From the NCBI GenBank assembly GCA_000004985.1, contig GG738911.1: a DNA stretch of 64,000 bases. One strand, given 5' to 3'. Positions 17,881 through 62,763 of the stretch are shown piece by piece. The notes beneath the pieces are model-generated. The model worked only from the letters and a program-made list of their open reading frames with translations, ran no database searches and was not told the origin of the DNA. A program made the translations under genes and the position numbers. Each line of letters begins with the position of its first letter. Within the stretch, counting starts at the first letter, position 1. The stretch is from Naegleria gruberi. Taxonomy: Eukaryota.

Positions 17881-19740
17881 ATGTTGCCAACCTACGCTTC
17901 GGAACGGCCAAACCAAGACCTCCACACACGAAGGAATGCACCATTAACAAATTCAATCAATAATTCATCATCACGAACGACCGATATGGAAAATCCATCA
18001 TCTTTGAATTTTCCAACAATTTCTCATCAATTCACATTTAAACAAAAAGTTTTACGAATTGTAAAATTGTTTGTGTTGATTATTGTGGCAATTGTTGTGT
18101 TGCATGTGATGATGCACTATTTGGAGTTTAAATTCTTTAATAATTCGACACATAGAAAGGAACAAATACGAATCTATGAGCAAATTACGAATCTATTGAC
18201 TAATCCGGACCAAACCAAGGAAGGTTCATATGGATGGTATAGAAAACAACTGGATAAGAAGAATCAACTAGGAAATACACTATTTAAAGATCCAATAATG
18301 ACTAAATTGGGGTTTCAAGAGACACACACAACGAGTGCTGAATTATTTCCATATTTCAGAACTATTAACACAACTGAAGAGTGTAGGAATCAACATTCTT
18401 GTAGATTTTATGCAGACAAGACAGCAGGAGAGTTCTTGAAAGAGGGAGTGGAATTGGATGCAGTTTTGCAACATTGTCAATATAAGGATCCATACTTTTT
18501 AAATTCTGAAAGTGATGAAGCAAAAATTGTGAATGAATTTCAGTTTAATGTTGTGAATTCGAATATGAATTTGAGGAGGGAGAAATTGGTTGGAGATGAA
18601 GAGGCACTTTTACATCACTCTCATCAGTTGGATAATTTATTTGGTGAAAAGATTTGGAGAGGAATGAGAAGATTGTCAATTATCATGTGTAGTGAGGCTC
18701 GTGTTCATGAACTCGTTGGTGGAATTACACAACATGCAGATAGCTATTGGTCAAAGCAAAGATTTGCACGTTCCACAGCCGACATTTCCATTTGCTTCCT
18801 TTCCACATGTTCTGTTTGGATCAATTACCATTATCAGGATATGAGTCTTTCCAAGTCAAAGGAATTTGGAACTAAACCATTCAAAAAAAATAAGGGAATT
18901 TGTGCTTTTATTTCAAATTGTGATCAAGCTGGTTGCACTGATTTGAAACAAAGATTTGAACTCTTGAATACACTCTCAAAATACATTCCAGTGAGACAAT
19001 ATGGTAGATGTGGAAAGAATGCACAAGAAGGACCAGGTGGTAAAACATTTGAAATTGAAAATAATTGTCGATTCTATTATGCAGCTGAAAATTCAATTGC
19101 CAAAGATTATGTTACTGAGAAATTCTTTGAAGGATTGAGAGCTCTCGAGCACGGATCGAAAGTATTAATGCTCTACAGAGGTGCTCCAAATTTGAGACAA
19201 GATTGGGGTATTCCAAAGAGTCTCTACTTGGATCATAATGATTTTGAATCTGTGGATGCATTGGGTCAATATTTGAAGAAATTGAATGATGATGATAATG
19301 CCTTTGAAGAACGGTTCAGTAAAATTACAATGCAAGAAAGAAAGAAGGTTGATAAGGCACTTGCAGCATTCAATCCACGTCTTGGATCAAACATTCCATG
19401 TAGAATTTGCAGTGTAATTGGAGAAATGAAATTGGCACGTTATTTACTCTTCAAAATTGGATTAAAGACAAGTAGAGCTAAGGTCAACCTGAACGAGTGG
19501 AATGAATTTAAATCTAAATTCAATCTTTCAGAGGAAAGAGTGAAAATATTGGACGATATTTATCATACTGCCTATGGAATCTTCCAATCTGCAAACAATA
19601 AGGAAAATAGATTTAATTTGGGATGGGATTTCGGGAGGAAGGATGAAGTACAGCACACAGAGGGAGAGGGGGTTGGTTCTGGTGACAGAAAATTCTCTGG
19701 TCTTGTGGTTAAGCGAAATAATAAACGAAAATTACTCTAA
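17881..19740 (+). CDS. alpha-1,3-fucosyltransferase (GT10) paralog 1, type II membrane protein
   Basis: 619-aa ORF with an N-terminal signal anchor (IVKLFVLIIVAIVVLHVMMHY). It carries the canonical GT10 motif CRFYYAAENSIAKDYVTEKFFEG (compare YxFxLxFENSxxxDYxTEK). Confidence 0.8.
   Translation: MLPTYASERPNQDLHTRRNAPLTNSINNSSSRTTDMENPSSLNFPTISHQFTFKQKVLRIVKLFVLIIVAIVVLHVMMHYLEFKFFNNSTHRKEQIRIYEQITNLLTNPDQTKEGSYGWYRKQLDKKNQLGNTLFKDPIMTKLGFQETHTTSAELFPYFRTINTTEECRNQHSCRFYADKTAGEFLKEGVELDAVLQHCQYKDPYFLNSESDEAKIVNEFQFNVVNSNMNLRREKLVGDEEALLHHSHQLDNLFGEKIWRGMRRLSIIMCSEARVHELVGGITQHADSYWSKQRFARSTADISICFLSTCSVWINYHYQDMSLSKSKEFGTKPFKKNKGICAFISNCDQAGCTDLKQRFELLNTLSKYIPVRQYGRCGKNAQEGPGGKTFEIENNCRFYYAAENSIAKDYVTEKFFEGLRALEHGSKVLMLYRGAPNLRQDWGIPKSLYLDHNDFESVDALGQYLKKLNDDDNAFEERFSKITMQERKKVDKALAAFNPRLGSNIPCRICSVIGEMKLARYLLFKIGLKTSRAKVNLNEWNEFKSKFNLSEERVKILDDIYHTAYGIFQSANNKENRFNLGWDFGRKDEVQHTEGEGVGSGDRKFSGLVVKRNNKRKLL
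18862..19134. repeat. ~272-bp near-identical tract shared with 39628..39900 (FucT paralog 2): candidate gene-conversion tract
   Basis: Only ~2 substitutions over ~270 nt between the paralogs, while flanking coding sequence is ~70-88% identical. The identical antisense ORFs 18908..19096 and 39674..39862 are a by-product of this. Confidence 0.7.
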
Positions 19741-23219: not shown

Positions 23220-23274
23220 TGGCTCATCAGACGAAACATTGACTTTCAAACAATCACAAAAAAAACAAAACAAA

Positions 23275-24405
23275 ATGTATTCGAATATCAAAACTATCCG
23301 AAACACCTTGAGCAACTTGTTGCTCCTCACTCTCCTTACATTGACTTTCATCAACTGTTCCTCAATGCAAACCAATCTCTTTCCCTCCAATTCTAGAGCA
23401 ATCAACGTTGCTGGTGGCACATCAGTGTCATCTGCCAATGAATTTCCACATATGGTCAGCATTCAATACTACTCGAGCTCATCAGTTGCCACAGGAATCC
23501 ACTTCTGTGCAGGAACCATCATATCCCCTCTCCACATTGTCACTGCTTCTCACTGTGATATTGGTGTCACTTTAGATAAATTGAGAATTATTGCTGGGAA
23601 TTCGAATAATCAATGCACCGCTAGTTCAACATCATGCACGATTCGTACAGTTACCAAATTCACAAAGCATCCAAATTATGACAGTTCTACCATTAAGAAT
23701 GATATTGCAATCATTGAATTGGATCAACCAATTCCATTGGACGGAGTTAGAGCAGTTGCCGCCAAAATTGAGAATTTGACATTGGATCAATTTCTTTCAT
23801 CTAGTTCTAGCTCAATGGTAAATATTGCTGGTTGGGGAAGAACTACAACTCAATCAAGCGTTCAAGTGATTCAGAAGGCTATGGTTCCAATTTCGCCAGT
23901 TTCAGTTTGTAACGCCAAAAATTTGGGAGTTTCGTCTCCAAATCAAATATGTGCTGGTAATGGAAATGGTATTGATACTTGTGGTGGTGATAGTGGTGGT
24001 CCACTTTTCAGAGTTATTGCTGCAGGAACTGTCAATAACAATTTACCAATCTTTGTCTTGACAGGTGTCGTTTCTTATGGACCTCCAGGATGTGGTGGAT
24101 CAAATGTTGGTGCCTACACAAATGCAACTCAATATATCTCATTTATAAGAGAACAAGTTGGTTCCTCATATACAGTTGAAAAGTACGGAGATAGTTCAAA
24201 GCCAATTATTACTCCAACTCCTGTGCCATCTCCTTCTCCAGTCGTTCCTGTTCCTTCTAATAATGGTAATAATCAATCTTGTAAATGCAAGTGGTATTGT
24301 AAGAAGGTTAGACAAATGAGGGAAATGAGATTGAGAGGTGGAATGAATGTTGATGAGAGTCAATTTATGAAATGGATAAAGTTAAATCCATTCAATAAAA
24401 TGTAA
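23275..24405 (+). CDS. Secreted trypsin-like (S1) serine protease with Pro/Ser-rich linker and short Cys/basic tail
   Basis: Signal peptide MYSNIKTIRNTLSNLLLLTLLTLTFINC. Catalytic triad motifs are present: IVTASHC (His), DIAIIEL (Asp) and GDSGGPLF (Ser). This is followed by TPTPVPSPSPVVPVPS and CKCKWYCKK. The ORF-track start at 23239 is a TTG; the ATG is at 23275. Confidence 0.85.
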   Translation: MYSNIKTIRNTLSNLLLLTLLTLTFINCSSMQTNLFPSNSRAINVAGGTSVSSANEFPHMVSIQYYSSSSVATGIHFCAGTIISPLHIVTASHCDIGVTLDKLRIIAGNSNNQCTASSTSCTIRTVTKFTKHPNYDSSTIKNDIAIIELDQPIPLDGVRAVAAKIENLTLDQFLSSSSSSMVNIAGWGRTTTQSSVQVIQKAMVPISPVSVCNAKNLGVSSPNQICAGNGNGIDTCGGDSGGPLFRVIAAGTVNNNLPIFVLTGVVSYGPPGCGGSNVGAYTNATQYISFIREQVGSSYTVEKYGDSSKPIITPTPVPSPSPVVPVPSNNGNNQSCKCKWYCKKVRQMREMRLRGGMNVDESQFMKWIKLNPFNKM

Positions 24406-24491: not shown

Positions 24492-24578
24492 ATCCGATTA
24501 TACGGAATCGAACCGCCGACCACAGGATAACAGTTTTTCTTGCTACAGTCCCATGCTCTACCAGCTGAGCTATCATCG
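24492..24578 (-). tRNA. tRNA-Tyr (GUA) with ~14-nt intron 3' of the anticodon
   Basis: Minus-strand sequence CCGATGATAGCTCAGCTGGTAGAGCATGGGACTGTAG[caagaaaaactgtt]ATCCTGTGGTCGGCGGTTCGATTCCGTATAATCGGA shows the D-arm GCTCAGCTGGTAGAGC, anticodon-loop CUGUAGA and T-loop GGTTCGATTCC. The intron position matches eukaryotic tRNA-Tyr. A few stem mismatches remain, so the call is moderate. Confidence 0.6.
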
Positions 24579-24701
24579 GTTATGATATTGTTATTTAATG
24601 GTACACAATTATAATATATAAATTATGTCGCAACTACATTTATCTCTTGAGCCATATGACTTTTCAAAATTTGGTGAATGTTCAAATATTGTAAAGAAGG
24701 G

Positions 24702-27929: not shown

Positions 27930-30371
27930 ATGAATGAACGAAAGAAGCCTTCAAATCATCACAATCATCATACTTTGGAATCATTGAGGGAATTATTAAA
28001 ATTATTAATCGAATTTAAATATTATCATCATTACGATCATGATGATGAAAGAGCGAATGATAACAAATTGCTCAATGAACATTCAAGAATGATGATGGAA
28101 AGAATTGAATTCCCTCTCCGAATTTATGTTTATCCACTGAGTGAAAATGGAAAGCAAATGTATGAGAGAACTATAGACATGTGTAAGAATCATTCCTTTG
28201 ATAATGAGGAAATGACCTTCTTTCCACATGCCTATATTGATTGCTATTTAATTGATTTTATCATGTTGAATACTTCTAATTACTATGATGGAAATTTGAT
28301 AAAAAGAGTGAATAATATTGAGGAGGCAAATATTGCATACATTCCAATTCCTCTCGTAATGAATTTCTATGATAATATTAAAAAGGAGGGAGAGAAGGAT
28401 TTTCTAAACTTGACAGAAAAGATTAAATCTGATTTTTACAATGAAATGATTTACAATACTGAAATGGAAGATAATTTTGAAAAAGTTCCACATTTTGTAA
28501 CGTATTCCTTTGTTTCGTATAGACTTTCATTTAGTGGAATTCCAAAACAGGTTAAAATTGTAACGTTGGAAAATGTGGCAATTAGTGGTTCACCACAGAA
28601 TGCTTGGTATGATAATGGATGTCAAGATAGATGCCTCACCATTCCATATGCAACCATTTTTGATTGGCCATCAGCATATAATGAAAGTTCTAACACTCTC
28701 TATGCAGAGGATTATACACACAATTGGAAGAATAGACCCTATCTTCTCTCATTCATTGGTTCATTGAATAGAACTGAAATTCTATTCACTCATAGATATC
28801 ATCTTGTGACCAAGTTGAGCGAATTCAGAGGTAGATATTTTCATACATTCAAGGAATCAATTTCTACGAGTAGTAATATTGAAATTTATGGAAAATCCAA
28901 ATTTTGTTTACAACTTCATGGAGATACACCAACTAGAAATGCATTCTATGAATCCTTGCTCATGGGTTGCATACCAGTCATTACTGAGAAGACATTTATT
29001 AGTTATCGATCACTTTTTGGATATTTATTACCAGTTGAGGAATTTACAATTGTAATTGATAACAAGTATGCTGAAGAACATGTTCCTGTAAAGGAAATTA
29101 TTGAGAGATTGAATCAAATTGATAGGAATGGTGAATATTTGAGAATGTTGAACATTTTCAAATCCATTTCCTTTTTCCTTCGATACAAACATGCTCAATC
29201 ATCAAATCTACTTGCTATTCTATCTATCTTGAGTGCACAGATACCACTTTCAATTCCTCCAAGATATAACAATCGTCCCAGAGATGAACAACATGACAAT
29301 TTTAATCCTATTGATATATTTATGGGAAGACCAATTGAAAAAGTTTACAAGTGGATGAATTTATCAATTCCTAAATTTAACATGACAATGAAAATGGAAA
29401 ATTGTGGAGAATTTACTTGTAAAATTTACATTCCACAATTCTATCATGAATTAACAATTGATTCCCTATCAACACATAATAGCATTGATCATTTACCAAC
29501 TCTAATGGAATTTGCACTTATTCAACGATTGAAGAATGAAAATATTCTCACCAGCAATACTGAACATGCCAATTTGATATTCTATCCATTTAATCTCAAT
29601 GTGATATTCAATCAACATGTATTGGATCAACAAGTGAAACAAGTTGGAATTCAGAAGAAGGGATTTCTCATTAGCAACAACACTGGAAATGAACAAATAC
29701 CAAAAATTATTGAAAATCTAAACAAAATTCAATCCATTTTCAATAATTTCACCATTTATACATTATCACCACATGCAATTGAGCAAAAGAATGTGAAAAC
29801 TCTACCATTCACAACCATTGAACTTTTTGATTCCAATTTCCATCAAATTTCCACTTCTTTCAATAGAAATTCTCTACTTTGTCAATTAATTGAAGAAAAT
29901 TTCAATGGGGAGGAAAATCAAATTGCGGAAATGTTGGAAATTCACTTTGGAAATGATTATCCACATTTATTCTCTAAAAAGGTCAATTCGATCGAATTAC
30001 TGAACTGTACCTATGTCATCATGTCAAATGTAAATCCATCAAAATTATTACATCAATCAATTCGACATGGCTCAATACCCATTTCTTTAAATTCCAATAA
30101 TCAGGACCTTAATGCATTATTACCACATCAAGTTATTGATCGATCTCAAATAATTCTTGAAATTCCAAAACCAATTCAAAAACTTTACAAAAATTTGGAA
30201 TTTTTCTCAAATTGGCTGATTCGATTTTTACAAAATATTTCACATGAAGAAATTCAAGCAAGAAGACAAGCAATGACAAAGTTAAAAAGTTATTTTAATT
30301 TATCGAATGAAAAACATGGTGGTAAATATGATTTAGCTGATCTTGTCTTGTGTTCCCTTAACTGTCACTAA
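27930..30371 (+). CDS. Exostosin-like glycosyltransferase (GT47) paralog 1
   Basis: 814-aa ORF with the GT47 C-terminal motif KFCLQLHGDTPTRNAFYESLLMGCIPVI. The ORF-track start at 27927 is TTG and the first ATG is 27930. An expected type-II signal anchor is encoded upstream (27631..27759) in a different frame (see findings). Confidence 0.7.
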   Translation: MNERKKPSNHHNHHTLESLRELLKLLIEFKYYHHYDHDDERANDNKLLNEHSRMMMERIEFPLRIYVYPLSENGKQMYERTIDMCKNHSFDNEEMTFFPHAYIDCYLIDFIMLNTSNYYDGNLIKRVNNIEEANIAYIPIPLVMNFYDNIKKEGEKDFLNLTEKIKSDFYNEMIYNTEMEDNFEKVPHFVTYSFVSYRLSFSGIPKQVKIVTLENVAISGSPQNAWYDNGCQDRCLTIPYATIFDWPSAYNESSNTLYAEDYTHNWKNRPYLLSFIGSLNRTEILFTHRYHLVTKLSEFRGRYFHTFKESISTSSNIEIYGKSKFCLQLHGDTPTRNAFYESLLMGCIPVITEKTFISYRSLFGYLLPVEEFTIVIDNKYAEEHVPVKEIIERLNQIDRNGEYLRMLNIFKSISFFLRYKHAQSSNLLAILSILSAQIPLSIPPRYNNRPRDEQHDNFNPIDIFMGRPIEKVYKWMNLSIPKFNMTMKMENCGEFTCKIYIPQFYHELTIDSLSTHNSIDHLPTLMEFALIQRLKNENILTSNTEHANLIFYPFNLNVIFNQHVLDQQVKQVGIQKKGFLISNNTGNEQIPKIIENLNKIQSIFNNFTIYTLSPHAIEQKNVKTLPFTTIELFDSNFHQISTSFNRNSLLCQLIEENFNGEENQIAEMLEIHFGNDYPHLFSKKVNSIELLNCTYVIMSNVNPSKLLHQSIRHGSIPISLNSNNQDLNALLPHQVIDRSQIILEIPKPIQKLYKNLEFFSNWLIRFLQNISHEEIQARRQAMTKLKSYFNLSNEKHGGKYDLADLVLCSLNCH

Positions 30372-30575
30372 TCAAAAAAATTGTTACTAATGAAATTCAA
30401 TTTTCAAAATTATTGTAGTCTTCAATTTTATACAACAAACAAACCCTATCCAAAATGAGAGTTTCATCAGATCAGGAAAATAAATGTTGATTGGTGGCAT
30501 GTGACAGGTAACCTTCCAGTTTGATCTCTTTAAAAAACATCAAAAAAAAAATAACTGATCCTATTATTCACCAAC

Positions 30576-31586
30576 ATGTTAAAACCAACAATTCTCATCG
30601 TCATCATCTTGCTTTTTCATCAATTTTTTATTAACTGTCAACAATCATTTGAAATTGCCAAATTTATTTCCGAACAAAATGAACAATTTAAACAAGAAAT
30701 TAATCAAGAATTTGAATTTCCAATTCATTCATCACGAAATATACAACAAGAATCATGTGTCCCATTGACAACACCTGTAGAATATTGTTCCGGACTAATT
30801 CCAAATAACATTTCGTATATAACTTCAAGATCATTAAACACAGTCGAACCTAGACTAATCTCACAAATTGACAATTTTATTACAAAAATGGAAGTTAATT
30901 ATGGTTCTATTACATCTAATTGTAAAAATTCAGCAATTGATTTATATTGTAGCATGTCATTTAAAAGATGTGTTCATGACAGGAGTAGAGGATTAGTTGA
31001 GCTCTATAAACCATGTCAATATTTATGTCAAGAATTATATTTGAATTGCATTCCTGATAGAAAAGTTGCAATTGCTTCATCTAGAAATGATTGTGGTGAT
31101 GAAAATTATCCGAAAGGTGCTTATTCAGTTCAACCAACTTGTACTGATATTTATTTTGATAGAGATGTCACTTCTTATTATATTATGAGTTTTACTTTAT
31201 TAGGTGTTGGATTATTGAGCTCATTGATGTGTGGTGGAAGTTTTTTAATTTGTATTTGTTGTGCCAAGTCAATTAAACCATCAAATTCAACCATTGGTGA
31301 TGCTTATTCACATCAACAAGAATCTGATACTAATTCTAGACAAAGTATTAATAGTGGATTTAGATTTTCAATTGATGAAGGAAAACCAATGTTTTCAAAT
31401 TCACCAATTATCAATTCATCCATTAATTCAACTAATTCAGTTGGTGGTGGTGTTAATACTACTTCTGGTAATGCTGCTAATACTACAACTACCACTGCAA
31501 GTGGTAATAGTAATGCATTTGGAGGAAATGATAATGATGGATTGACTGTTATTAATATTAGTGGTGGTGATAATGATTCAAATTAA
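30576..31586 (+). CDS. Frizzled-type cysteine-rich domain (FZ-CRD) single-pass membrane protein with S/N/T-rich tail
   Basis: Signal peptide, then 10-Cys spacing CVPLTTPVEYC...NCKNSAIDLYCSMSFKRCVH...YKPCQYLCQELYLNCIP...DCGDENYP, matching the Frizzled CRD pattern (C.P(I/L)....C ... PCRSLCE.....C). A TM helix follows (MSFTLLGVGLLSSLMCGGSFLICICCA). Confidence 0.6.
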   Translation: MLKPTILIVIILLFHQFFINCQQSFEIAKFISEQNEQFKQEINQEFEFPIHSSRNIQQESCVPLTTPVEYCSGLIPNNISYITSRSLNTVEPRLISQIDNFITKMEVNYGSITSNCKNSAIDLYCSMSFKRCVHDRSRGLVELYKPCQYLCQELYLNCIPDRKVAIASSRNDCGDENYPKGAYSVQPTCTDIYFDRDVTSYYIMSFTLLGVGLLSSLMCGGSFLICICCAKSIKPSNSTIGDAYSHQQESDTNSRQSINSGFRFSIDEGKPMFSNSPIINSSINSTNSVGGGVNTTSGNAANTTTTTASGNSNAFGGNDNDGLTVINISGGDNDSN

Positions 31587-31898
31587 TCATCATCATCACT
31601 CTCATCTCATTGTGTAAATTATAAAGTGTGCATTTTCTTGAACATTCTTACTTGTTTGATTATTGAAGTGTGCATTGCTACCACTGTGTGTGTGTGAAAA
31701 ATCGATTGCCTTTAGAGAGATCTGTTCTTCCAGCTGGTACAACACATATCACTTTCTCGCTTTATTTTGCTGACTATTTTAGAAATAGGTTGGGAAATGA
31801 TGTAACTCTCTCAATGCGAGCGGCAAAAGAATTTTATTGATACTAATCGAGAGAGGTAATATAATTCGATTTCAAAAAAAAACGAATCATTCAGAGAG

Positions 31899-32984
31899 AT
31901 GCATCAACAACATAACAGCATCCAAGAGAAGGACAAGTTAACAAGCGATCTTTGTAGGTCTTCCTTGTTGCGAATTATTCCCAAAGAATGTTTTCAACCG
32001 AGTGCTTTGATTTACTATTCTGATTTCACACTCTCACTCGTTTTGTATCATTTGTTGTTTTATGCATGTTATAAATTGATGAAGGAGGGTTATATTTATC
32101 AGGCAGTGGTATTGGCATTCATTACATCCTTCATATTTTACAGGGTCATGTTGTTCATTCATGAATCTGTTCATCAATCTCAAAATTTGCCCAATTTTGT
32201 AAAGTATTACAACCTTGTGAATGGATTCCCTAACAAGGTTCCTCTCTATTGCTACAAACCACATCTGACACATCATGATCCAAAAGTCTATGGTCAAGCT
32301 AACGATCCAGAATATCAGAGCATCAGTAGTGGTTCAATATGGTTTCATTACCTATTGGTTCCAGTGATTTTTCAATTTCCTGTTGCAGTATTTACATGTT
32401 TACGTTTTAATCTAGTTCCATTCCTTCTACCATTCATTGGAAGTAAGGGAAGAGAGTTCATTTGGAGATATGCATCCACATTGGCCATGAATCCATTCTT
32501 TGACAGAGGTCTCCCAACTGAACAAGATAAGAAGGAGTGGTATGTGCAAGACTTTGGATGTGCATGTGCAACAACTTGTCAATTTATTGCTATTTACTTT
32601 GGATTTATTGAAGATGGTTTGAGTTTTATGAGAACAACTCTTATCATTGTTTACTTTTTGCTTGTTGTGAACATGTACAGAGCAATGGCTGCTCACAGAT
32701 ACTTTGCTGAACCACATCAACCACCACTCTCTAGAAAACAAATGATTTTGGATTCGGTCAACTATGCAAGTGATTCTTGGATTTGTTTCTTTTGGTTTCC
32801 TGTTGGAACACTTTATCATGGCTTACATCATGTATTTCCCACAATTCCATATCATCACCTTGCAAGAGTTCACTCAATTTTGGTTGAACATTTGAGAAGG
32901 AATGATCCTTCCCATCCCTATTTATGTACTGTGATTGAAAGTTATTGGGAAAATGTGAGAGCTCAAATCAACTTGAAATTGTAA
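31899..32984 (+). CDS. Membrane fatty-acid desaturase/hydroxylase-superfamily protein (three His boxes)
   Basis: 361-aa ORF with hydrophobic helices and His boxes HESVH (Hx3H), HLTHH (Hx2HH) and HGLHHVFPTIPYHH (Hx2HH). Confidence 0.65.
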   Translation: MHQQHNSIQEKDKLTSDLCRSSLLRIIPKECFQPSALIYYSDFTLSLVLYHLLFYACYKLMKEGYIYQAVVLAFITSFIFYRVMLFIHESVHQSQNLPNFVKYYNLVNGFPNKVPLYCYKPHLTHHDPKVYGQANDPEYQSISSGSIWFHYLLVPVIFQFPVAVFTCLRFNLVPFLLPFIGSKGREFIWRYASTLAMNPFFDRGLPTEQDKKEWYVQDFGCACATTCQFIAIYFGFIEDGLSFMRTTLIIVYFLLVVNMYRAMAAHRYFAEPHQPPLSRKQMILDSVNYASDSWICFFWFPVGTLYHGLHHVFPTIPYHHLARVHSILVEHLRRNDPSHPYLCTVIESYWENVRAQINLKL

Positions 32985-33077
32985 ACATAGTTTCATAGTA
33001 TTAAAAGTATCATTATTACTTGATTGAAATTTAATCTTACAGAGGAAAGGTGAGAGTTAATTAGACTAGAAAGCAAT

Positions 33078-33593
33078 TTATTTCTTGGCAATCTTTTTAG
33101 TCTTACATTTCAATTTCTTCAGTGAAGCCTTCAACTTGACAATTTTGGCTCTGAGCTTCTTAATATTCTTCAAAGCATTCTTTTTAGCAGCAGCATTACT
33201 AGTGGTGGCTGTCTTCTTGAGTTTCTTCACAGCAAGAATAGTCTTTCTGAGTGATCTTCTGAGTTTGGCACATTTCGAAGCCTTCTTTGACTTTTTAGCC
33301 TTCTTCTTACTTGTCTTCTTGGTAGAAGAATTCTTCTTCTTTGGAGTTGTTTTCTTCTTTGATGATTTCTTAGCAGAAGAATTGGTCTTCTTACCAGATT
33401 TCTTACCAGATTTCTTGGTTGTGCTACTTGTTGATTTCTTGCTGCTTGATTTCTTACTAGAAGAAGATTTTCTGGCTGTTGCTGTTGTTTGGACAGATTG
33501 AGTTTCAGCTTGTTGTGCAGCTGCGAAAGAAACGCACAATAACAATGATAATAATAACAATGAAAGAATTAACCACTTGCCACTACTATTCAT
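33078..33593 (-). CDS. Secreted, extremely basic K/S/T-rich protein (paralog A)
   Basis: Signal peptide MNSSGKWLILSLLLLSLLLCVSFAAA, then KKSSSKKSTSSTTKKSGKKSGKK...KCKTKKIAKK. The true start is at the second M of the ORF (ORF track 33629). Confidence 0.6.
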   Translation of the reverse strand: MNSSGKWLILSLLLLSLLLCVSFAAAQQAETQSVQTTATARKSSSSKKSSSKKSTSSTTKKSGKKSGKKTNSSAKKSSKKKTTPKKKNSSTKKTSKKKAKKSKKASKCAKLRRSLRKTILAVKKLKKTATTSNAAAKKNALKNIKKLRAKIVKLKASLKKLKCKTKKIAKK

Positions 33594-33840
33594 TTTGTTG
33601 TTGTATTTTTTTGATGGATGTTTGGACACGGGAAGGAAGAAGCTGTCACTGATGGAACAAATGATTGGACAAATGAACTTGCAAGAGTTCCTTTAAAGTG
33701 GTGTGAGTGCAATTTTGGTAATTTCTCAAAGTGAGATAATTTGCAAGATTTTTTAAACAAATCAATTTGATCAACAAAATTAATTAATGGAAAATATTGA
33801 GACAATTAAATTGATTTAATGTTTTTCAATTATGTACATT

Positions 33841-34659
33841 TTAATTGGCCTTCTTGGCAACCTTCTTAGCAGCAACCTTCTTGGCAGACTTTTTAGCTTT
33901 CTTGGCCTTCTTGAGCTTCTTCAAAGCATTCTTGCAAGCGTTTCTCTTGGTCAAGTTCTTGGCCTTCTTGGCACATCTTCTCAACTTTCTGAGTTTTCTG
34001 AGTTTCTTCAATGCTTTCTTACAGGCATTTCTCTTCTTCAAGGATTTAGCCTTCTTTGCGCATCTCTTCAACTTTCTGAGCTTTCTAATTCTCTTCAATG
34101 CCTTCTTACAAGCCTTCTTCTTCTTCAAATTCTTTGATTTCTTGGCACATCTTCTCAATTTTCTGAGCTTTCTGAGTTTCTTCAATGCCTTCTTGCAAGC
34201 CTTTCTCTTCTTCAAATTCTTTGATTTCTTGGCACATCTTCTCAATTTTCTGAGTTTTCTGACTCTTTTCAAAGCCCTCTTGCATGCCTTTCTCTTCTTC
34301 AAAGATTTAGCCTTCTTGGCACATCTCTTCAACTTTCTAACTCTCTTAGCCTTCTTTGATTTCTTGGCAGACTTCTTTGACTTTTTACATTTCTTCTTTA
34401 ATTTGAGTTTCAATTTGCGAACCTTTGATCTGAGTTTCTTGACTCTCTTGGCAAGTTTAGCACATTTCTTTGATTTCTTAGCCTTCTTCCAAGTCTTCTT
34501 TGGCTTTGTAGCCTTCTTGTTGGTAGTTGAAGTCTTCTTTACAATTGATGATGATTTGACGGCTTGAGTTTCGGCTTGTTCAGCAGATGCGAAAGAAACG
34601 CAACATGCCAACAATGCGAGCAACAACAAGGAGAGAATAACCCACTTGCCACTATTCAT
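33841..34659 (-). CDS. Secreted polycationic Cys-containing tandem-repeat protein (paralog B; about 5 x 29-aa repeats)
   Basis: Signal peptide MNSGKWVILSLLLLALLACCVSFASA. Repeats of RCAKK(S/A)K(N/S)LKKRKACKKALKKLRKLRKL contain 2 Cys each, and well over half of all residues are K/R. Encoded by an 87-bp nucleotide tandem repeat. Confidence 0.65.
   Translation of the reverse strand: MNSGKWVILSLLLLALLACCVSFASAEQAETQAVKSSSIVKKTSTTNKKATKPKKTWKKAKKSKKCAKLAKRVKKLRSKVRKLKLKLKKKCKKSKKSAKKSKKAKRVRKLKRCAKKAKSLKKRKACKRALKRVRKLRKLRRCAKKSKNLKKRKACKKALKKLRKLRKLRRCAKKSKNLKKKKACKKALKRIRKLRKLKRCAKKAKSLKKRNACKKALKKLRKLRKLRRCAKKAKNLTKRNACKNALKKLKKAKKAKKSAKKVAAKKVAKKAN
33940..34345. repeat. 87-bp tandem repeat (~5 units) inside the coding region of 33841..34659
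   Basis: cttggcacatcttctcaattttctgag recurs with 87-nt period, e.g. at ~34141 and ~34228. The units are in-frame (29 codons). Confidence 0.8.
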
Positions 34660-35318
34660 TTTGTATGTTTTTTTTTGGATGATGAATGAGAACTTTCTAG
34701 TAGAGAGAAATAGCACTCGTGTCATGCAGATTCGTTAATTGTACTACGATTTTTGAAGTGAAATGACAAGTTGACTCGATTGATTTCCCGCCAAACGAAC
34801 TACTCTTTTACAACGTTCGTATATGGAAGGCAGCTTCAATTTGGTATCATCGTTGGATAATACAAAATTATCAATGAATGTTAATTTTTATTATCATGGT
34901 TACAATTACAATGTATGAAATATTAAAGAGTTTTACAGTTTGTTCAGTCAATAAGTCCAATTACTCCATTCACTACAAGCGACAATTCTCATCTTTGCAT
35001 CTCTTATTAAACTGTATTGTAAAGTATTAACAATATTAAGCCACATTTATAAATCCCTTATTTGGTCAATATTCCGAATCATCAAAATAAAACCCTCAAC
35101 AAATGCACATTAAACAATCGTGAGAGTGCGCACTCAAGCCACTGAGCTGAAATTAACCAACACTTCTCAAGCGCAACCTTTATTTTCACATTTGTGCGTA
35201 CTCACAAATCCTATTCATCTCATCTATTAAGCAAGGCTGTAAAATGCCATGAACTTTCAGTAGACAAAAACTCTCAAACAAATATTGAAAAAAACAAGCC
35301 GATTTGAAAACTAGCAAA

Positions 35319-36944
35319 ATGAATACTACTATCGAAACATCATTTATTAATGTTGCTGCTGCTTCTTCTTCTTCAACACCTTCATCATCTTGGAAGGAAA
35401 TCTTGATGAATGCTTATAAGAATGGACAAACTAATGTTACCGATCAAATAAGTTATGCTCTTAATTGCTTAATTAAGCAACTTCATAAGATTTTAACCGT
35501 CACTCATCAAAAGAAAGGTCCTTTATTTAATAAGATGTTGGTTTCTTCTTTCACTGCACAAAATTTGATTGATTGCATTTGTAAAGTCTTGTTGGAAACT
35601 TCCACAAGTGACAAGTTGGCAGATTACATTGGTCAATTGATGGTTCAATTGAATATGATTGAATTTGATTGTCAAAATAAGAATTCCACTAGATTATCTG
35701 ATGATAGAAAGAGATTGGTTCGTTTCTTACATCCATACATGCCAAGATTGGTTATCATTGGAGGTGGACATTCTGGAGTATTGACAGCTTGTCAGTTAAA
35801 TGATTATTTCTCTATTGTTTTGATTGACAAGAATCCACATTGCACTTTAAAGCCGGCATTTCCAGTAATTCTAGAGAAAGTTGATCATGTTAACAAGATT
35901 TCTATCAATTACTCTGAAATTCTCCCTTCAAATGTCACTTTCATTCATGGGTTGACCAAAATAGTGAGACAGGATGGTGTCTTTATTGAAATTGCTGGAA
36001 AAGAGCCACAAATCAAGCACATGTTGACAAATGAATATTCAGATTCCAACACAGATGTAAGAAATTGTAAATTCCTTTCCTTTGATTATTTGGTCATCGC
36101 CACAGGTTGCAATGGTTGGAAAAATGTTCCACAAATGGAAAATCCTCAAAAGGAAAACAAGATTTTATATGTTGATGGTTATAACATGGACATGGTCGAG
36201 TTGTCAGTCACTGCCATTAATCAATCCAATCATGATATTGTTGTAATTGGAGGTGGAAGTGTCGGATGTGAATATTTTGGATCACTAGCTCAAACTTTCC
36301 CAAATAGGAATTGTTATTTAATTCAAAGATCTGACATGTTAATGAAACCATCCAAAGATGCTCACAAGGCAGCAACTGATACATTTGCCAAGATGAAGAA
36401 TGCAAATGTCAAATTTAATTGTCAAGTTGATCGTCAAGAAGATTCGAATATTCTTGTTGTAAAGTCATTGGAAAGTGGAGAAGAAACAAGAATCAAGTGT
36501 TGTGTTTGCTTCCTTGCCTCAGGTATCTCACCAAACACTAAAATGATGAATGAATACTTTGGAGAAAGCATGGACGAAAATAATTATCTGAAAGTGAATC
36601 CTTCCTTCCAATTATGGAAATCTAATTCTGAGTATTTTAACAATATTTTCGTTTTGGGAGATGCCAATAATGCTGATACTGAAAAACTAATTCAAAATGC
36701 AGATATTCATGCTGAGAAATTTGTTGAAATTGCCAAATCTATTCTAAAGGTTTCGTCTCCCAACTCAAATGAAGGTATTTTAGCAACGTATGATAATGCT
36801 CCTCGTGTGATGGCTGTTTCACTTGGTCCTAAAACTGGTTTCTTAATGAAAGATAACAAGATCATGTTCAAATCTGGCGTTGTAAACAAATTGAAATCTG
36901 CCATTCAAAATTCAACTCTAAAAACCTACAAAAAATTTCAATAA
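35319..36944 (+). CDS. FAD/NAD(P)-binding pyridine-nucleotide disulfide oxidoreductase, AIF/AMID/NDH-2-like
   Basis: Two Rossmann dinucleotide motifs, RLVIIGGGHSGVLTA and IVVIGGGSVGCEYFGS, plus the C-terminal FAD motif IFVLGDANNA. The first ATG is at 35319 (the ORF track starts at TTG 35304). Confidence 0.7.
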   Translation: MNTTIETSFINVAAASSSSTPSSSWKEILMNAYKNGQTNVTDQISYALNCLIKQLHKILTVTHQKKGPLFNKMLVSSFTAQNLIDCICKVLLETSTSDKLADYIGQLMVQLNMIEFDCQNKNSTRLSDDRKRLVRFLHPYMPRLVIIGGGHSGVLTACQLNDYFSIVLIDKNPHCTLKPAFPVILEKVDHVNKISINYSEILPSNVTFIHGLTKIVRQDGVFIEIAGKEPQIKHMLTNEYSDSNTDVRNCKFLSFDYLVIATGCNGWKNVPQMENPQKENKILYVDGYNMDMVELSVTAINQSNHDIVVIGGGSVGCEYFGSLAQTFPNRNCYLIQRSDMLMKPSKDAHKAATDTFAKMKNANVKFNCQVDRQEDSNILVVKSLESGEETRIKCCVCFLASGISPNTKMMNEYFGESMDENNYLKVNPSFQLWKSNSEYFNNIFVLGDANNADTEKLIQNADIHAEKFVEIAKSILKVSSPNSNEGILATYDNAPRVMAVSLGPKTGFLMKDNKIMFKSGVVNKLKSAIQNSTLKTYKKFQ

Positions 36945-37028: not shown

Positions 37029-38261
37029 TTAGTTTAGTTTATTGATTTGAGACATGAATTCATGATCTTTCTTCATTGATTTGGTTAAAAATTGAATAAT
37101 CTTTGAATTTTTCCTTGCCAATCTCAACACAAATTCCTTGTCATCCCTTAATGACTTGTCAATATGTTGAAAAACATTGACATTTTGACTGACAGCTTCA
37201 AATACAATCTCCTTATCCTTCTTAAACTCTGGATTAATATATTTGATTATAAATCCATCATATTTAGCAGTTAGTAATATCAAATCTCTATCATCCTTAA
37301 TAAATCTCGCTATATAAAATGTACTCGTGGAAGATCTTTCAGGAATTTCCAATATTTCAACAAGAAATTCCCTATCCTTAATTAATTCTTCAAGTGCATA
37401 TTCAAGTGCAAATCCCTTACTTTTCCTGACAACCTCCAAAACAAACTTCTTATCTAGTTTCAATTCTCTGCTAGCATATTGAAAGGCACTTCCTTGTTCA
37501 TTTCTCATTATGGCCTTCATTATAATTTCTCTGTCGTTTTTTATTTCCTCGCCTGCACTTCCTATAAATGACCAACAATGTGAAATTGCCAACTCTACAA
37601 TTTCTCTATCATTCCTTAATGATTCATGAACGAATTTAAGAGCATGACCACTTGATTTGGCTGCTGCCATTACTATTTCTCTATCACTCTTAAATCTATC
37701 ATTTGCATATCCTAAACTTCCACCATCTTGTTTGACAGCTGCCATTACTATTTCTCTGTCATCTTTCAATCTATCAGAAGCAATACTAAGCATAGAACCA
37801 ACTCCCTTAACAGATCTCAACACAACTTCTCTATCATTTCTAATAACTTCATTAGAATTATTATAAATAAATCCAGGACTAATTCCAACTATTTGAAATA
37901 TAAAATTTGAATCAAATTTCAATTCCTTTCCCAATTGGGCACCAATTTCGAATGCATTTTGGCGGTAATATGCTAATGAATATTTAAATCCCAATGAACT
38001 GATGGAAACATTGCTGAATGGATTATGACATGAATTGTGTTCATTCATAAATTTGAGAATTGTAAACCAATCTCGTCTTGTATCGAGAAATTTAATGGTT
38101 TCCTTTAAATGTTCGGAGCCTCCGGAGATGATCGGATCTATGATTGTTTGGTATTTTAAATAATGAGGAATATCTCTGATTTTAGTGGAGAGTAAATTGG
38201 ATTGAAATGATTGATCTAAGAGAAGTAATACTTGTAAAGGTGGTGTTTGTTGTGCTTGCAT
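37029..38261 (-). CDS. DUF4116-type tandem-repeat protein (paralog of 15931..17787)
   Basis: Repeats NDREVVLRSVKGVGSMLSIASDRLKDDREIVMAAVKQDGGSLGYANDRFKSDREIVMAAAKSSGHALKF... The first ATG is MQAQQTPP (38261); the ORF track extends to TTG 38345. Confidence 0.65.
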   Translation of the reverse strand: MQAQQTPPLQVLLLLDQSFQSNLLSTKIRDIPHYLKYQTIIDPIISGGSEHLKETIKFLDTRRDWFTILKFMNEHNSCHNPFSNVSISSLGFKYSLAYYRQNAFEIGAQLGKELKFDSNFIFQIVGISPGFIYNNSNEVIRNDREVVLRSVKGVGSMLSIASDRLKDDREIVMAAVKQDGGSLGYANDRFKSDREIVMAAAKSSGHALKFVHESLRNDREIVELAISHCWSFIGSAGEEIKNDREIIMKAIMRNEQGSAFQYASRELKLDKKFVLEVVRKSKGFALEYALEELIKDREFLVEILEIPERSSTSTFYIARFIKDDRDLILLTAKYDGFIIKYINPEFKKDKEIVFEAVSQNVNVFQHIDKSLRDDKEFVLRLARKNSKIIQFLTKSMKKDHEFMSQINKLN

Positions 38262-38451
38262 TTTTTGAATTTTCTTTTGTTGACCAATGAACTTGGAACT
38301 TGTAAACAATTCTAATTGCAATTTGAAAAGTGCATCCAATAACAATCAATAATCTTTATTGTAAAGTTAGTATTAAAGATAATTAAATACACACATAAAA
38401 TAAATACAAAATGCAGATGAACTTGACACTCCAGAAGCCTTCAAAAAAAAA

Positions 38452-40413
38452 ATGTTACCCACCTACTCATCGGAACGTCCCAATCAGCATTTACGTGGAC
38501 GAGGAAATAATGTAACATCTCCATCACCTTCATCTTCGTCATCTTCGTCATCATCACCATTGGAAAATAATTTATCTTCTGCATCATCATCAAATTTTGG
38601 CGCCAGAAAGTCCAAATGTTCAGGCAAGAAAATAGGCTGTTTAATAATAGGCTTGTTATTGCTCATCATTGCCTTGTATTGGTTGTTTAGTGTTGTGAGT
38701 GAGAATGTAATTATTGTTACGGATGATGATGCTGATAATGCTGTTGCAACAAATTTTAGGAATATTGCAGAATTGGATGGAAATGAAAATACTAATATTA
38801 AATCAGCATCGGAGAAGGATACTAAAACAAGCCTTAAAAAAGATAAGAAAGAGGAAGGTGATGAAAAGAAGGAGGAAATTGTACCACCACCTCCAATTGT
38901 TAAACGTAAGAAGAACAAACAAGAGAAACAACAAGATTTAATATTTGAAGAAATTGCTAAATTATTAACTAATCCAGATCAAACAAGCGAAGGATCCTAT
39001 GGATGGTATAGAAAACAATTAGATACTAATAATAGATTAGGTAATACTTTATTTGATGATCCTATAATGACTAAATTAGGATTTCAAGATACTCTTACCA
39101 CTAGTGAATTATTATTTTACTATTTTAGAACATTTAATACGACACAGGAATGTAGACAACAACATACATGTAAAATTTATGCAGATAGAACTGCAGGTGA
39201 ATTTTTGGAAGAGGGAACTCAATTGGATGCTGTTGTGCAACATTGTCAATATAAGGAACCTTACTTTTTAAATTCACATGAACAAGAATCCAAGAATTTG
39301 AATGTTTTTCATTCACTCATTACAAAATCAGATGATAATTTAAAGAATATTGACAAATTAGAAGTATCTAATGTTTTAGCACATTCTAATCATATGGATT
39401 ATTTATATGGAGAACAAATGTGGAGAGGAATGAGAAGATTATCAATTATCATGTGTAGTGAAGCTCGTGTTCATGATCTTGTTGGTCCAATAACACAAAA
39501 GAAGAATGATTACAAATCAATGCAAAGATTTTCAGATTCTACAGCTGACATTTCAATTTGTTTCCTTTCAACATGTTCTGTTTGGGTTAATTATCATTAT
39601 TGGCAATTATCTTTATCCAAATCAAATGAATTTGGAACTAAACCATTCAAAAACAATAAGGGAATTTGTGCTTTTATTTCAAATTGTGATCAAGCTGGTT
39701 GCACTGATTTAAAACAAAGATTTGAACTCTTGAATACACTCTCAAAATACATTCCAGTGAGACAATATGGTAAATGTGGAAAGAATGCACAAGAAGGACC
39801 AGGTGGTAAAACATTTGAAATTGAAAATAATTGTCGATTCTATTATGCAGCTGAAAATTCAATTGCCAAAGATTATGTTACTGAGAAATTCTTTGAAGGA
39901 GTAAGAGCTCTTCAAAATGGTGCCAGAGTAATTACATTATATAGAGGTGCTCCAAATTTGAGACAAGATTGGGGATTTCCAAAGTCTCTCTACTTGGATC
40001 ATAATGATTTTGAATCTGTGGATGCATTGGGTCAATACATGAAGAAATTGAATGATGATGACAATGCCTTTGAACGATGGTTCAACAAGATGACAATGCA
40101 AGAAAGAAAGAAGGTTGATAAGGTTTTAGATGGTTTCGAACATAGACTTGGAACTAATATTCCATGCAGAATTTGTGCCATTGTTGGTGAAATGAAATTA
40201 GCACGTTATTTATTATTTAAAATTGGATTGAAAACAACAACAGCAAAGGTCAATTGGTATGAATGGCAACAATTCAAAGCAGATAAGTTTGAAAATCTCT
40301 CCAAGGACAGACTTGCAATATTGGATCATATTTATGTGATGGCCTTTAATATTTTCCAAACTGAAAATAATAAGGCAAATAGATTTAATCTTGCTTGGGA
40401 TTTTAATAAGTAA
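38452..40413 (+). CDS. alpha-1,3-fucosyltransferase (GT10) paralog 2, type II membrane protein
   Basis: Same N-terminus MLPTYSSERPNQ as paralog 1, TM anchor IGCLIIGLLLLIIALYWLF, and the identical GT10 motif CRFYYAAENSIAKDYVTEKFFEG. It has a Ser-rich, acidic/basic N-terminal extension that paralog 1 lacks. Confidence 0.8.
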   Translation: MLPTYSSERPNQHLRGRGNNVTSPSPSSSSSSSSSPLENNLSSASSSNFGARKSKCSGKKIGCLIIGLLLLIIALYWLFSVVSENVIIVTDDDADNAVATNFRNIAELDGNENTNIKSASEKDTKTSLKKDKKEEGDEKKEEIVPPPPIVKRKKNKQEKQQDLIFEEIAKLLTNPDQTSEGSYGWYRKQLDTNNRLGNTLFDDPIMTKLGFQDTLTTSELLFYYFRTFNTTQECRQQHTCKIYADRTAGEFLEEGTQLDAVVQHCQYKEPYFLNSHEQESKNLNVFHSLITKSDDNLKNIDKLEVSNVLAHSNHMDYLYGEQMWRGMRRLSIIMCSEARVHDLVGPITQKKNDYKSMQRFSDSTADISICFLSTCSVWVNYHYWQLSLSKSNEFGTKPFKNNKGICAFISNCDQAGCTDLKQRFELLNTLSKYIPVRQYGKCGKNAQEGPGGKTFEIENNCRFYYAAENSIAKDYVTEKFFEGVRALQNGARVITLYRGAPNLRQDWGFPKSLYLDHNDFESVDALGQYMKKLNDDDNAFERWFNKMTMQERKKVDKVLDGFEHRLGTNIPCRICAIVGEMKLARYLLFKIGLKTTTAKVNWYEWQQFKADKFENLSKDRLAILDHIYVMAFNIFQTENNKANRFNLAWDFNK

Positions 40414-48834: not shown

Positions 48835-48884
48835 NNNNNNNNNNNNNNNNNNNNNNNNNNNNNNNNNNNNNNNNNNNNNNNNNN
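48835..48884. other. Assembly gap (50 N)
   Basis: Run of n. Confidence 0.99.
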
Positions 48885-50229: not shown

Positions 50230-50523
50230 TTAAGGTTGACTTGGGTATATTCGAATATATGATTTAACCTTCTTTATAATATTACAATTTTTACTATTAG
50301 AATTCTTCCTCTTTATGCTGCTCTCCATTACCATCTTCCTCAATTTCTCCATCAGATTCTTGATGTTTAGACATCTTTCTCTTGGATGGATTTGAAATAG
50401 GCGTTTCATCATCTCATACTTGGCCTTTCTTTTCAACTCTTCCAATAATATTCCTTCTCTATTGAAAACATCTCCACGATAAGGACTCCGATTTTTCATC
50501 AAGATAATCCTCTTAAAATTCAT
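50230..50523 (-). CDS. Hypothetical small basic protein; possibly the terminal exon of a spliced gene
   Basis: 97-aa ORF (..SPYRGDVFNREGILLEELKRKAKYEMMKRL..). An upstream minus-strand ORF fragment at 50640..50810 ends at a perfect GTGAGT donor (50640 region). Confidence 0.3.
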   Translation of the reverse strand: MNFKRIILMKNRSPYRGDVFNREGILLEELKRKAKYEMMKRLFQIHPRERCLNIKNLMEKLRKMVMESSIKRKNSNSKNCNIIKKVKSYIRIYPSQP

Positions 50524-58984: not shown

Positions 58985-59390
58985 TGCCAGATCGTGAGAT
59001 GAAAATTTTAAGGATTTGGCAATTATTGAATAAAGACTTGATGTTATTTGAAAAGATTTCAAAGTTGGTTCAATCCTCAATCTCCAGACGTGGCCTACCA
59101 ACCTTATTAAAAGATGAAATACATTGAGGATTCGAATATTTTCTTCTAATTTTTGTTGCTGTAAAATGAAGAGCGGGAAAATTATTCTCAACACACTTTC
59201 TATTTTAAATCCATTCAAAAGTCCATAATGCTCCTTTAAAGATATTCCACTCTTTGATTGCAGGTTTTAATCTTTGATGACTTTCAATATTAATTATAAC
59301 ACACGAGTTCAGTTCATCAATTAATTGTTAAATATTGGCGCATGTGGAGCTGCATGTATAGCATGTATTTCATTGTTATCCGACATGAGA

Positions 59391-62761: not shown

Positions 62762-62763
62762 AT

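Follow-up and report, generated by a model that had tools for sequence, protein, structure and literature searches.

A tandem pair of hyper-basic, predicted secreted proteins in Naegleria gruberi, one of them built from a cysteine-containing, predicted helical repeat

A stretch of 64,000 nucleotides (nt) from Naegleria gruberi (contig GG738911.1 of assembly GCA_000004985.1), referred to here as the window, carries two adjacent minus-strand genes, designated A and B, whose products are extremely basic and begin with a predicted signal peptide. A and B are real protein-coding genes under purifying selection and are best described as a lineage-restricted orphan family, found so far only in N. gruberi-like strains. 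The explanation that we favor, with a rough probability of 0.5, is that both products would be exported intact as polycations that bind polyanions, as their sequences and a structural model suggest. An earlier annotation of the same DNA by a model (the original prediction) had pointed to the pair, and its claims are taken up below where the results bear on them; its description proves mostly accurate for B and too strong for A.

Two tandem paralogous genes

In the open reading frame (ORF) listing of the window, two minus-strand ORFs (33078-33629 and 33841-34725) lie side by side between plus-strand flanking genes at 31899-32984 and 35304-36944. The genes and their leaders are as follows.

33078..33593, minus strand: gene A, complete coding sequence, 171 amino acids (aa) plus stop; predicted signal peptide, S/T/K-rich linker and C-terminal basic helical hairpin
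33594..33625, minus strand: conserved A-rich 5' leader of gene A, about 30 nt, CATCCATCAAAAAAATACAACAACAAA ahead of the ATG
33841..34659, minus strand: gene B, complete coding sequence, 272 aa plus stop
34660..34690, minus strand: conserved A-rich 5' leader of gene B (leader alignment with A, neighbor context)

The A-rich leader of about 30 nt can be aligned between A and B, the DNA farther upstream cannot, and a leader of this kind is also seen at most neighboring genes. Because the ATGs at 33593 (A) and 34659 (B) both sit in this context, the ATG at 34725 lacks it and A has no equivalent upstream ATG, the true starts are most likely 33593 and 34659; the start at 34725 originally assigned to the B ORF is probably wrong. 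The common N terminus proposed for the two adjacent genes, MNS(S)GKW(L/V)ILSLLLL...CVSFA(A/S)A, is present in both, with 64% identity over 48 aa. A blastp comparison of the N termini gave E=5e-9 with compositional adjustment, and their ratio of nonsynonymous to synonymous substitution rates (dN/dS) is 0.21. Judged by these sequences, A and B are tandem paralogues. A tblastn search for other paralogues in the window gave just weak matches at 50251-50808 and 57701-57871, both rejected as relatives of A and B because they are compositional and the genes are unrelated.

Coding status, strand and purifying selection

Differences among the tandem units of gene B fall at codon positions 1, 2 and 3 in the ratio 27:46:115, with pairwise dN/dS values of 0.04-0.23 and a synonymous rate (dS) that is often saturated. 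This wobble-biased, synonymously saturated divergence indicates that the array is old and its protein sequence constrained, and that it is not a young minisatellite. A second line of evidence came from an independent ENA metagenome assembly contig (L003; ERZ929261, k127_592857, 3320 nt; ERR1078381, PRJEB11402), which corresponds to window positions 30363-33692 at 98.1% identity and carries an Fz gene, the fatty-acid desaturase gene and the complete gene A; the metagenome sample contains a second N. gruberi-like strain. Between the two strains gene A differs by 10 substitutions, seven of them synonymous third-position changes and three conservative replacements (A25S, S57N, A105T), and by two indels, both of 3 nt, the indels in flanking non-coding DNA being 1, 4 and 5 nt long. 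The resulting omega (dN/dS by the Nei-Gojobori method, NG86) is 0.12, compared with 0.25 and 0.53 for the two flanking bona fide genes. Both Cys residues of A are kept in the second strain, and the signal peptide and C-terminal helices are the same except for A25S in the former and A105T in the first helix. The dS of gene A between strains, 0.066, is three to four times that of its two neighbors (0.014-0.019), in small counts. On the same contig the desaturase gene lacks 12 nt (four codons) near its start.

Codon usage differs between the strands. An index similar to the codon adaptation index, computed against ten neighboring genes, was 0.76-0.77 for the sense frames (B, 0.76) and 0.61-0.64 for the antisense ORFs (B antisense, 0.61). 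The GC content at third codon positions (GC3) was 0.53 in B and 0.39 in A, against 0.13-0.33 in the neighbors, driven by the codons AAG, CTC and GCC; in AT-rich protists, a raised GC3 would as a rule point to high expression. The long antisense ORFs, 33085-33501 and 33845-34567 on the plus strand, are F/L-rich, with AAG/AAA read as CTT/TTT, and contain no ATG. In one antisense frame the wobble position coincides with that of the sense frame; for this reason codon-position and synonymous/nonsynonymous counts were rejected as a test of strand, and the substitution pattern proves coding, not strand. The sense strand is instead fixed by what is found on it, namely an ATG with its leader, a predicted signal peptide, paralogy and the better codon usage, and by the lack of an ATG in the antisense ORFs. 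Antisense ORFs that share the wobble position are a general trap for strand tests of the dN/dS type on Lys-rich genes.

Protein architecture and predicted structure

Structures were predicted with AlphaFold2 (AF2) on single sequences, with confidence given as the predicted local distance difference test (pLDDT). The segments of the two proteins are as follows.

34582..34659, minus strand: predicted signal peptide of B, aa 1-26, MNSGKWVILSLLLLALLACCVSFASA, predicted cut before EQAETQ (heuristic only)
34489..34581, minus strand: short S/T/K linker of B, aa 27-57, predicted disordered (AF2 pLDDT <50 for residues 37-59)
34327..34488, minus strand: first basic helical segment of B, aa 58-111, with Cys66 and Cys91 (AF2 helices 58-100 and 102-116)
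33892..34326, minus strand: array of five 29-aa units of B, aa 112-256, an 87-bp tandem repeat (Tandem Repeats Finder, unit alignment, AF2)
33841..33891, minus strand: C-terminal KKA/KKV tail of B, aa 257-272, plus stop (sequence)
33516..33593, minus strand: predicted signal peptide of A, aa 1-26, MNSSGKWLILSLLLLSLLLCVSFAAA, predicted cut before QQAETQ (heuristic only)
33330..33515, minus strand: S/T/K-rich low-complexity linker of A, aa 27-88, predicted disordered (AF2 pLDDT ~50-60, no secondary structure)
33078..33329, minus strand: C-terminal basic helix-loop-helix of A, aa 89-160, plus tail and stop (AF2 pLDDT 83-98)

The signal peptide claimed for both proteins agrees with the heuristics applied: each has a single Lys in its n-region (K6 in A, K5 in B), a 15-residue hydrophobic core with a Kyte-Doolittle (KD) hydropathy of 2.9-3.2 (2.87 in A, 3.15 in B) and an A-x-A at -3/-1, which in B reads A-S-A. 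The C terminus of B, inspected by sequence, shows neither a hydrophobic tail nor a KDEL/HDEL retention motif.

Tandem Repeats Finder placed the repeat of B at 33876-34338, with a period of 87 bp, 5.3 copies, 81% matches and a score of 530, and five units align in register, in agreement with the proposed build of about five 29-aa units encoded by an 87-bp DNA repeat. The in-frame unit consensus is RCAKK[AS]K[SN]LKK[RK][KN]ACK[KR]ALK[KR][LVI]RKLRKL[RK]; the unit string quoted originally was 28 aa long, one short of the true unit. The five units make up 145 of the 272 aa (53%). Two Cys per unit, as had been stated, are invariant in all five; they lie 13 positions apart (C-x12-C), not 12, and alternate through the array as C-x12-C/C-x15-C. 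Paralogue A has no repeats.

Both proteins are hyper-basic, as predicted, with a pI of ~12 (11.8-12.0) and net charges of about +55 (mature A) and +127 (mature B). The accompanying claim that well over half of the mature residues are K or R holds marginally for B (52% of the mature protein, 56% of the array) and fails for A, which has 39% K+R, the rest being mainly S/T/A-rich. Acidic residues (D+E) account for 2 of 246 residues in mature B (E27 and E30) and for one residue in A (E30), all within four residues past the predicted cut. A also contains S/T-x-K-K and TPKKK motifs.

The AF2 model of B has a mean pLDDT of 82, rising above 90 through the array, and consists of a signal-peptide helix, a disordered S/T/K linker (~36-57), the two helices of the first basic segment and then array helices at 120-145, 149-174, 178-203, 207-232 and 236-271. 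The first basic segment opens with KKAKKSKKCAKL, which sequence comparison finds in common with A (KKAKKSKKASKCAKL). In the array, regular 26-residue helices are joined by three-residue loops at the A/S-K-S/N of each unit, so the predicted structural repeat is out of phase with the 29-aa sequence unit: each helix corresponds to LKKRKACKKALKKLRKLRKLRRCAKK, and the unit borders fall mid-helix. The C-x12-C pair straddles each loop (e.g., C113/C126 around loop 117-119) and, according to the model, would be positioned to staple consecutive antiparallel helices by a disulfide. For A, the model shows a disordered stalk at aa 29-88, then helices at 89-129 and 134-160, a hairpin with pLDDT >90, and Cys residues at 108 and 163. 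A Foldseek search against the PDB returned only designed helical repeat proteins at the non-significant level of E>0.1. The amphipathic-helix periodicity that had been read into KLRKLRKL proved weak, since the hydrophobic moment of the predicted helices at 100 degrees is just 0.8-1.8 standard deviations above that of shuffled sequences; Leu/Cys recur every third residue, which puts the peak of the periodicity at 110 degrees.

Homology searches and annotation status

The expectation that the pair belongs to no known family was borne out throughout. A Pfam-A hmmscan (E<=0.01) assigned B to no family, and for A it gave just a sub-threshold Mucin (PF01456) match of 18.0 bits against a cut-off of 34.7, compositional in nature and lying over the S/T/K linker; that linker is possibly an O-glycosylated, mucin-like basic stalk. 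Phmmer against PDB sequences gave no match at E<=1, and phmmer of B against 1.84 billion cluster representatives gave only two matches, a junk repeat ORF (P0028) and an acidic helical repeat (P0029), both unrelated on inspection and rejected as relatives. The homologous-protein search with B alone was empty, and an N-terminal A+B profile found nothing at E<=10 among 5.8 billion proteins. Scans of metagenome contigs with the N-terminal and repeat profiles, as well as of viral and prokaryotic genome contigs, found no relatives, and the collections searched held no A/B orthologue in other cyst-forming amoebae or any other organism. Synteny was equally negative: a 40%-identical Pyr_redox relative (L001, L002) has other neighbors and no basic gene beside it. 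In a control with local phmmer/hmmsearch (library Z), fragments of B of at least 90 aa would score E<=1e-29 and full-length A 5e-7; given these scores the negative searches are meaningful for complete proteins, but the cut gene product on the second-strain contig was not returned, truncated products evidently lying outside what was searched. The literature search found nothing on Naegleria basic secreted proteins, nor on the project accession of the second strain.

Exact look-up of six ORF versions (four sense, two antisense) in a collection that holds the neighboring N. gruberi RefSeq proteins found none of them, and neither A nor B appears to be in the reference proteome. The GenBank EFC, RefSeq XP and EukProt numbers run gap-free through the plus-strand neighbors.

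Genomic surroundings

The window is Naegleria gruberi nuclear DNA. On the upstream side of the pair, ORF 35304-36944 is 100% identical to 'predicted protein [Naegleria gruberi]' XP_002670838 and carries a Pyr_redox domain; on the downstream side, ORF 31899-32984 is a fatty-acid desaturase, 100% identical to XP_002670837/NAEGRDRAFT_74189; one 261,328-nt scaffold carries both. Further neighbors in the window are typical eukaryotic genes (Fz domain, exostosin, GT10 fucosyltransferases, DUF4116 repeats, PAS-cyclase). The two GT10 fucosyltransferase paralogues, 17881-19740 (+) and 38452-40413 (+), are 74% identical over ~500 aa, and each adjoins a DUF4116-repeat gene, 15931-17787 (+) and 37029-38345 (-), respectively, this second pair being ~26% identical. 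The arrangement looks like an old segmental duplication bracketing the A/B region. Pfam identifies the gene at 23239-24405 (+), 9 kb from the pair, as a serine protease of the trypsin family (Trypsin, E=3.6e-36).

At 24493-24579 (-) there is an Rfam tRNA match (40.2 bits, full model, 87 nt), which may stem from a eukaryotic tRNA with an intron or a long arm; ARAGORN, run with its bacterial default settings, found no tRNA in the window. Runs of N, that is, assembly gaps, occupy 4981-5450, 48835-48884, 54379-54650 and 59391-62761 (4163 bases in total), and three ORFs of >1100 aa at 59325-62804 are artefacts that run across the largest of them. An ORF at 3-4232 (+), at least 1409 aa long and open at the window start, encodes TPR, PAS and adenylate/guanylate cyclase domains; at the ORF end, ~750 bases ahead of the first gap, the cyclase domain is matched only to profile position 65/183. 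This ORF may belong to the many PAS-cyclases of Naegleria.

Discussion

In the explanation that we favor, each product would enter the endoplasmic reticulum (ER) via a cleavable N-terminal signal peptide. The polycation would then, still intact, either be released or be presented extracellularly or in a compartment beyond the ER. The Lys before and the acidic residues just past the predicted cut would favor N-in/C-out insertion under the charge-difference rule. Past its short disordered linker, B would form a rod or sheet of 26-residue K/R/L/A helices with three-residue loops, and the Cys on either side of each loop would staple neighboring helices by disulfides in the oxidizing secretory pathway. 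In A, a long stalk rich in S/T/K and probably glycosylated would bear a single hairpin of basic helices. For both, the most likely mode of action would be electrostatic, multivalent attachment to polymers of negative charge. Because Naegleria is a bacterivore, bacterial envelopes (lipopolysaccharide [LPS], teichoic acids) and extracellular DNA encountered during feeding would be the most economical target and are ranked first; the effect on bacteria would be agglutination and permeabilization, like that of protamine, poly-lysine and eosinophil granule proteins. The amoeba's own acidic glycans or polyphosphate (polyP) would come second, with mineral surfaces as a further alternative. The argument for an intact, exported, stapled polycation draws on the predicted ER signal, the invariant paired Cys, the extreme charge, the lack of acidic spacers and a helical array that is predicted to continue across unit borders.

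Several points weigh against this explanation. One antisense frame shares the wobble bias, with 72 synonymous and 73 nonsynonymous differences between units and 6 synonymous and 3 nonsynonymous differences between strains. The amphipathicity of the helices is not significantly above that of shuffled controls, AF2 single-sequence confidence is known to be generous for idealized helical repeats, and at a charge of +127 the chain may need a counter-polyanion in order to fold. The choice of target polyanion is guesswork. The UniProt series, in which D2VYP1 is the desaturase and D2VYP3 the Pyr_redox protein, skips D2VYP2. The same series also skips D2VYP4, where the minus-strand DUF4116 gene lies; the numbering suggests that minus-strand models are numbered separately, and there may be a differently built minus-strand model at the A/B locus.

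A more far-reaching version is that the pair represents an unrecognized class of eukaryotic secreted effector, an encoded, disulfide-stapled, helical 'poly-lysine' (~+127) that a bacterivorous amoeba of the N. gruberi lineage only would export uncut in order to trap, agglutinate or kill its prey or to attach itself to mineral surfaces, and that annotation missed because of its low complexity; we put this forward tentatively, as a possibility that could well prove wrong. If the two genes are expressed and their products secreted, few exported proteins described so far would match them in charge, and one would have to ask how a chain of this kind could pass through Sec61 and be stored with no harm to the cell that makes it. 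They would also give free-living amoebae a further antibacterial or adhesive agent, one outside the saposin kind. The 29-aa unit would then be a naturally selected single-staple helix-loop-helix scaffold, bearing a motif similar to the heparin-binding helix of ApoE, and a candidate for polyanion-binding, antimicrobial or cell-penetrating design. More generally, low-complexity secreted orphan genes may be missed by reference proteomes despite clear purifying selection at the population level.

Among the alternatives, the one that survives best is a structural role, in which the polycations would cross-link or neutralize acidic polymers that the amoeba itself makes (glycocalyx, mucopolysaccharide of the cyst wall or plug, or polyP in acidocalcisome- or granule-like compartments) or coat mineral surfaces as a poly-lysine adhesive for crawling. 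Composition and predicted structure fit this role as well as they fit the binding of bacterial polyanions, and the long S/T-rich, mucin-like stalk of A is typical of wall and surface glycoproteins. Cross-links between molecules are conceivable as well; in the model of B, a single unbroken helix holds both Cys66 and Cys91, which leaves them unable to bond to one another. As precedents there are basic matrix proteins rich in Lys (KRMP, PMC4498902) and polyP binders of the histone-H1 type (AlgP, PMC9239181). Against the role stand the lack of any lectin or carbohydrate-binding domain in the Pfam scan and of an orthologue in the other cyst-forming amoebae searched, core wall components being usually conserved at least within a genus. 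We regard it as improbable on balance, though worth keeping in view.

A polyprotein origin, the first of the two readings offered in the original prediction, is doubtful. A Kex2/furin-like protease would cut B after the [KR]R that precedes the first Cys of each unit and so release about five cationic antimicrobial peptides (AMPs) of 29 aa, each with a C-x12-C disulfide loop followed by a KALKKLRKLRKL helix, acting extracellularly or in phagosomes. Other antimicrobial peptides, the naegleriapores, have been reported from Naegleria. These come from multipeptide precursors, and most cationic AMP polyproteins (Ib-AMP, defensin, cathelicidin) have an acidic or neutral spacer or propeptide. B offers a predicted signal peptide, five near-identical tandem units over 53% of its length and an L[KR]R-C at five of five unit borders, and Kex2-cut tandem-repeat secreted precursors are known in fungi (Kex2-processed repeat proteins, KEPs; PMC6339444). 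However, KR, RR and KK occur throughout every unit, so the border site is not distinctive, and no acidic or neutral spacer or propeptide can be recognized among 246 residues with two acidic ones. In the AF2 model, moreover, the proposed cuts would fall mid-helix and the Cys pairs would bridge adjacent helices. The peptides, at +16 per 26 residues and a mean hydrophobicity of -0.8, would exceed typical membrane-active AMPs by far in charge and fall below them in hydrophobicity, and paralogue A lacks the repeats altogether. The original prediction's second reading, extracellular polyanion binding, fits these observations better, on the basis of composition and predicted structure only.

It is unlikely that the N-terminal segment is an uncleaved signal anchor, which would make A and B type II membrane proteins whose polycationic ectodomain would face either the outside of the cell or the lumen of vesicles. 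In favor of an anchor, the stretch from W/V to F gives a hydrophobic core of ~17-18 residues, which for a signal peptide is long, the AF2 helix in B runs on to residue 35, and the K before/E after arrangement gives N-in/C-out topology in either case. Both paralogues nevertheless keep a textbook A-x-A (-3/-1) c-region straight after the core, in the second strain AAA is replaced by ASA, whose residues are likewise small and neutral, and 26 aa is within the normal range of eukaryotic signal peptides.

That A and B are not genes at all, being either accidental frames over AAG/AAA-rich DNA and an 87-bp minisatellite or the shadow of functional plus-strand ORFs (33085-33501, 33845-34567), is very unlikely. 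Their absence from the collection holding the neighboring RefSeq proteins, the openness of both strands and a wobble signal common to one antisense frame would all suit that view. Against it, the ORFs reach far past the repeat on both sides; ATG, leader and signal peptide are conserved between the paralogues and the DNA upstream is not; the second-strain indels of gene A are both 3 nt and its omega lies below those of the flanking genes; the units are synonymously saturated with their protein sequence conserved; and the antisense ORFs lack an ATG and have poorer codon usage.

Nuclear or nucleolar basic proteins of a linker-histone-, protamine- or ribosomal-like kind, with an irrelevant hydrophobic N terminus, are scarcely credible: the composition resembles H1 C-terminal tails, and A has the S/T-x-K-K and TPKKK motifs, but the linker-histone or ribosomal match that was to count against the original prediction was looked for and is absent (no such Pfam family, no PDB sequence match), the hydrophobic N terminus is kept between paralogues and strains, and the invariant paired Cys suit an oxidizing compartment.

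Comparison with known systems

None of the known families considered as candidates passed membership testing. B resembles the fungal KEPs (alpha-factor, Ustilago Rep1, Candida Ece1/candidalysin; PMC6339444, PMC7329392) in its predicted signal peptide, compact cluster of tandem units and [KR]R at every border. The published KEP pipeline selects proteins with at least three clustered tandem repeats that cover at least 15% of the sequence (PMC6339444), and the five 29-aa units of B, at 53%, lie within that range. Nevertheless, there is no homology, the organisms belong to another eukaryotic supergroup, dibasic sites occur everywhere in B, its helical array is predicted to be continuous and it has no STE13-type dipeptides.

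Multi-copy cationic AMP precursors include Impatiens Ib-AMP, apidaecin, magainin/PGLa and the saposin-like naegleriapore precursors of Naegleria. B is similar to these in being a predicted secretory precursor with repeated cationic, Cys-containing units in a bacterivorous or defense context. However, in AMP precursors the peptides are separated by acidic or neutral spacers and cut out at defined sites, whereas the units of B abut directly, its charge density is far higher and its two acidic residues both lie within 4 aa of the cut. The naegleriapores in particular have a six-Cys, three-disulfide saposin B fold, whereas B has two Cys per 29 aa and no SapB Pfam match.

Helix-loop-helix units with Cys on both sides of the loop are also seen in CHCH domains, which are twin Cx9C modules of the mitochondrial intermembrane space, and in plant alpha-hairpinins, which carry CX3C...CX3C and in some cases come from multi-module precursors. 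The alpha-hairpinins share with B the tandem arrangement in one secreted precursor as well. B differs from both in having one Cys, not two, on each side of the loop, so that neither twin Cx9C nor CX3C...CX3C is present in its sequence or model, and in that each predicted helix is shared by two consecutive hairpins; CHCH proteins, furthermore, are not secreted. As for linker histones, defined by the H1/H5 winged-helix domain and having no ER signal peptide, A and B gave no Linker_histone Pfam match, and both start with a segment of the n/h/c signal-peptide type.

The basic helix of ApoE binds sulfated glycans and membranes electrostatically. Its heparin- and low-density lipoprotein receptor-binding sequence LRKLRKRLLR is almost identical locally to the KLRKLRKLRR of B, both being basic helices with Leu at every third or fourth residue. 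A full-text search of 8 million papers found the motif strings (LRKLRKLR matched) only in work on ApoE and ApoE-derived arginine-rich cell-penetrating peptides (PMC8943082, PMC4122225). We regard the likeness as convergence on a short motif only; ApoE is a lipid-binding four-helix bundle with balanced charge, no Cys staples and no tandem 29-mers.

Gene A recalls the diatom silaffins and the molluscan KRMP (PMC4498902), which are secreted basic proteins that bind acidic matrices; the features in common with A are a signal peptide, in A a predicted one, and S/K-rich low complexity (SSKKS, SGKKSGKK). The likeness is compositional only: Naegleria makes no silica or shell, and A has no visible RXL-bounded units and no Gly/Tyr domain.

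Finally, protamines, H1 tails, the polyP granule binder AlgP of Pseudomonas (PMC9239181), eosinophil major basic protein and epsilon-poly-lysine share with A and B an extreme K/R content and a pI of ~12. Multivalent binding to DNA, polyP, LPS and heparin is the action to be expected of these natural polycations and of A and B alike. They have no sequence homology with the pair; protamines, H1 and AlgP are intracellular and lack a signal peptide, and natural polycations are mostly disordered, in contrast to the regular, stapled helical repeat predicted for B. The pair is best described as probably working like known natural polycations, and as unusual among them in its predicted export signal and in its regular, Cys-flanked helical-repeat build.

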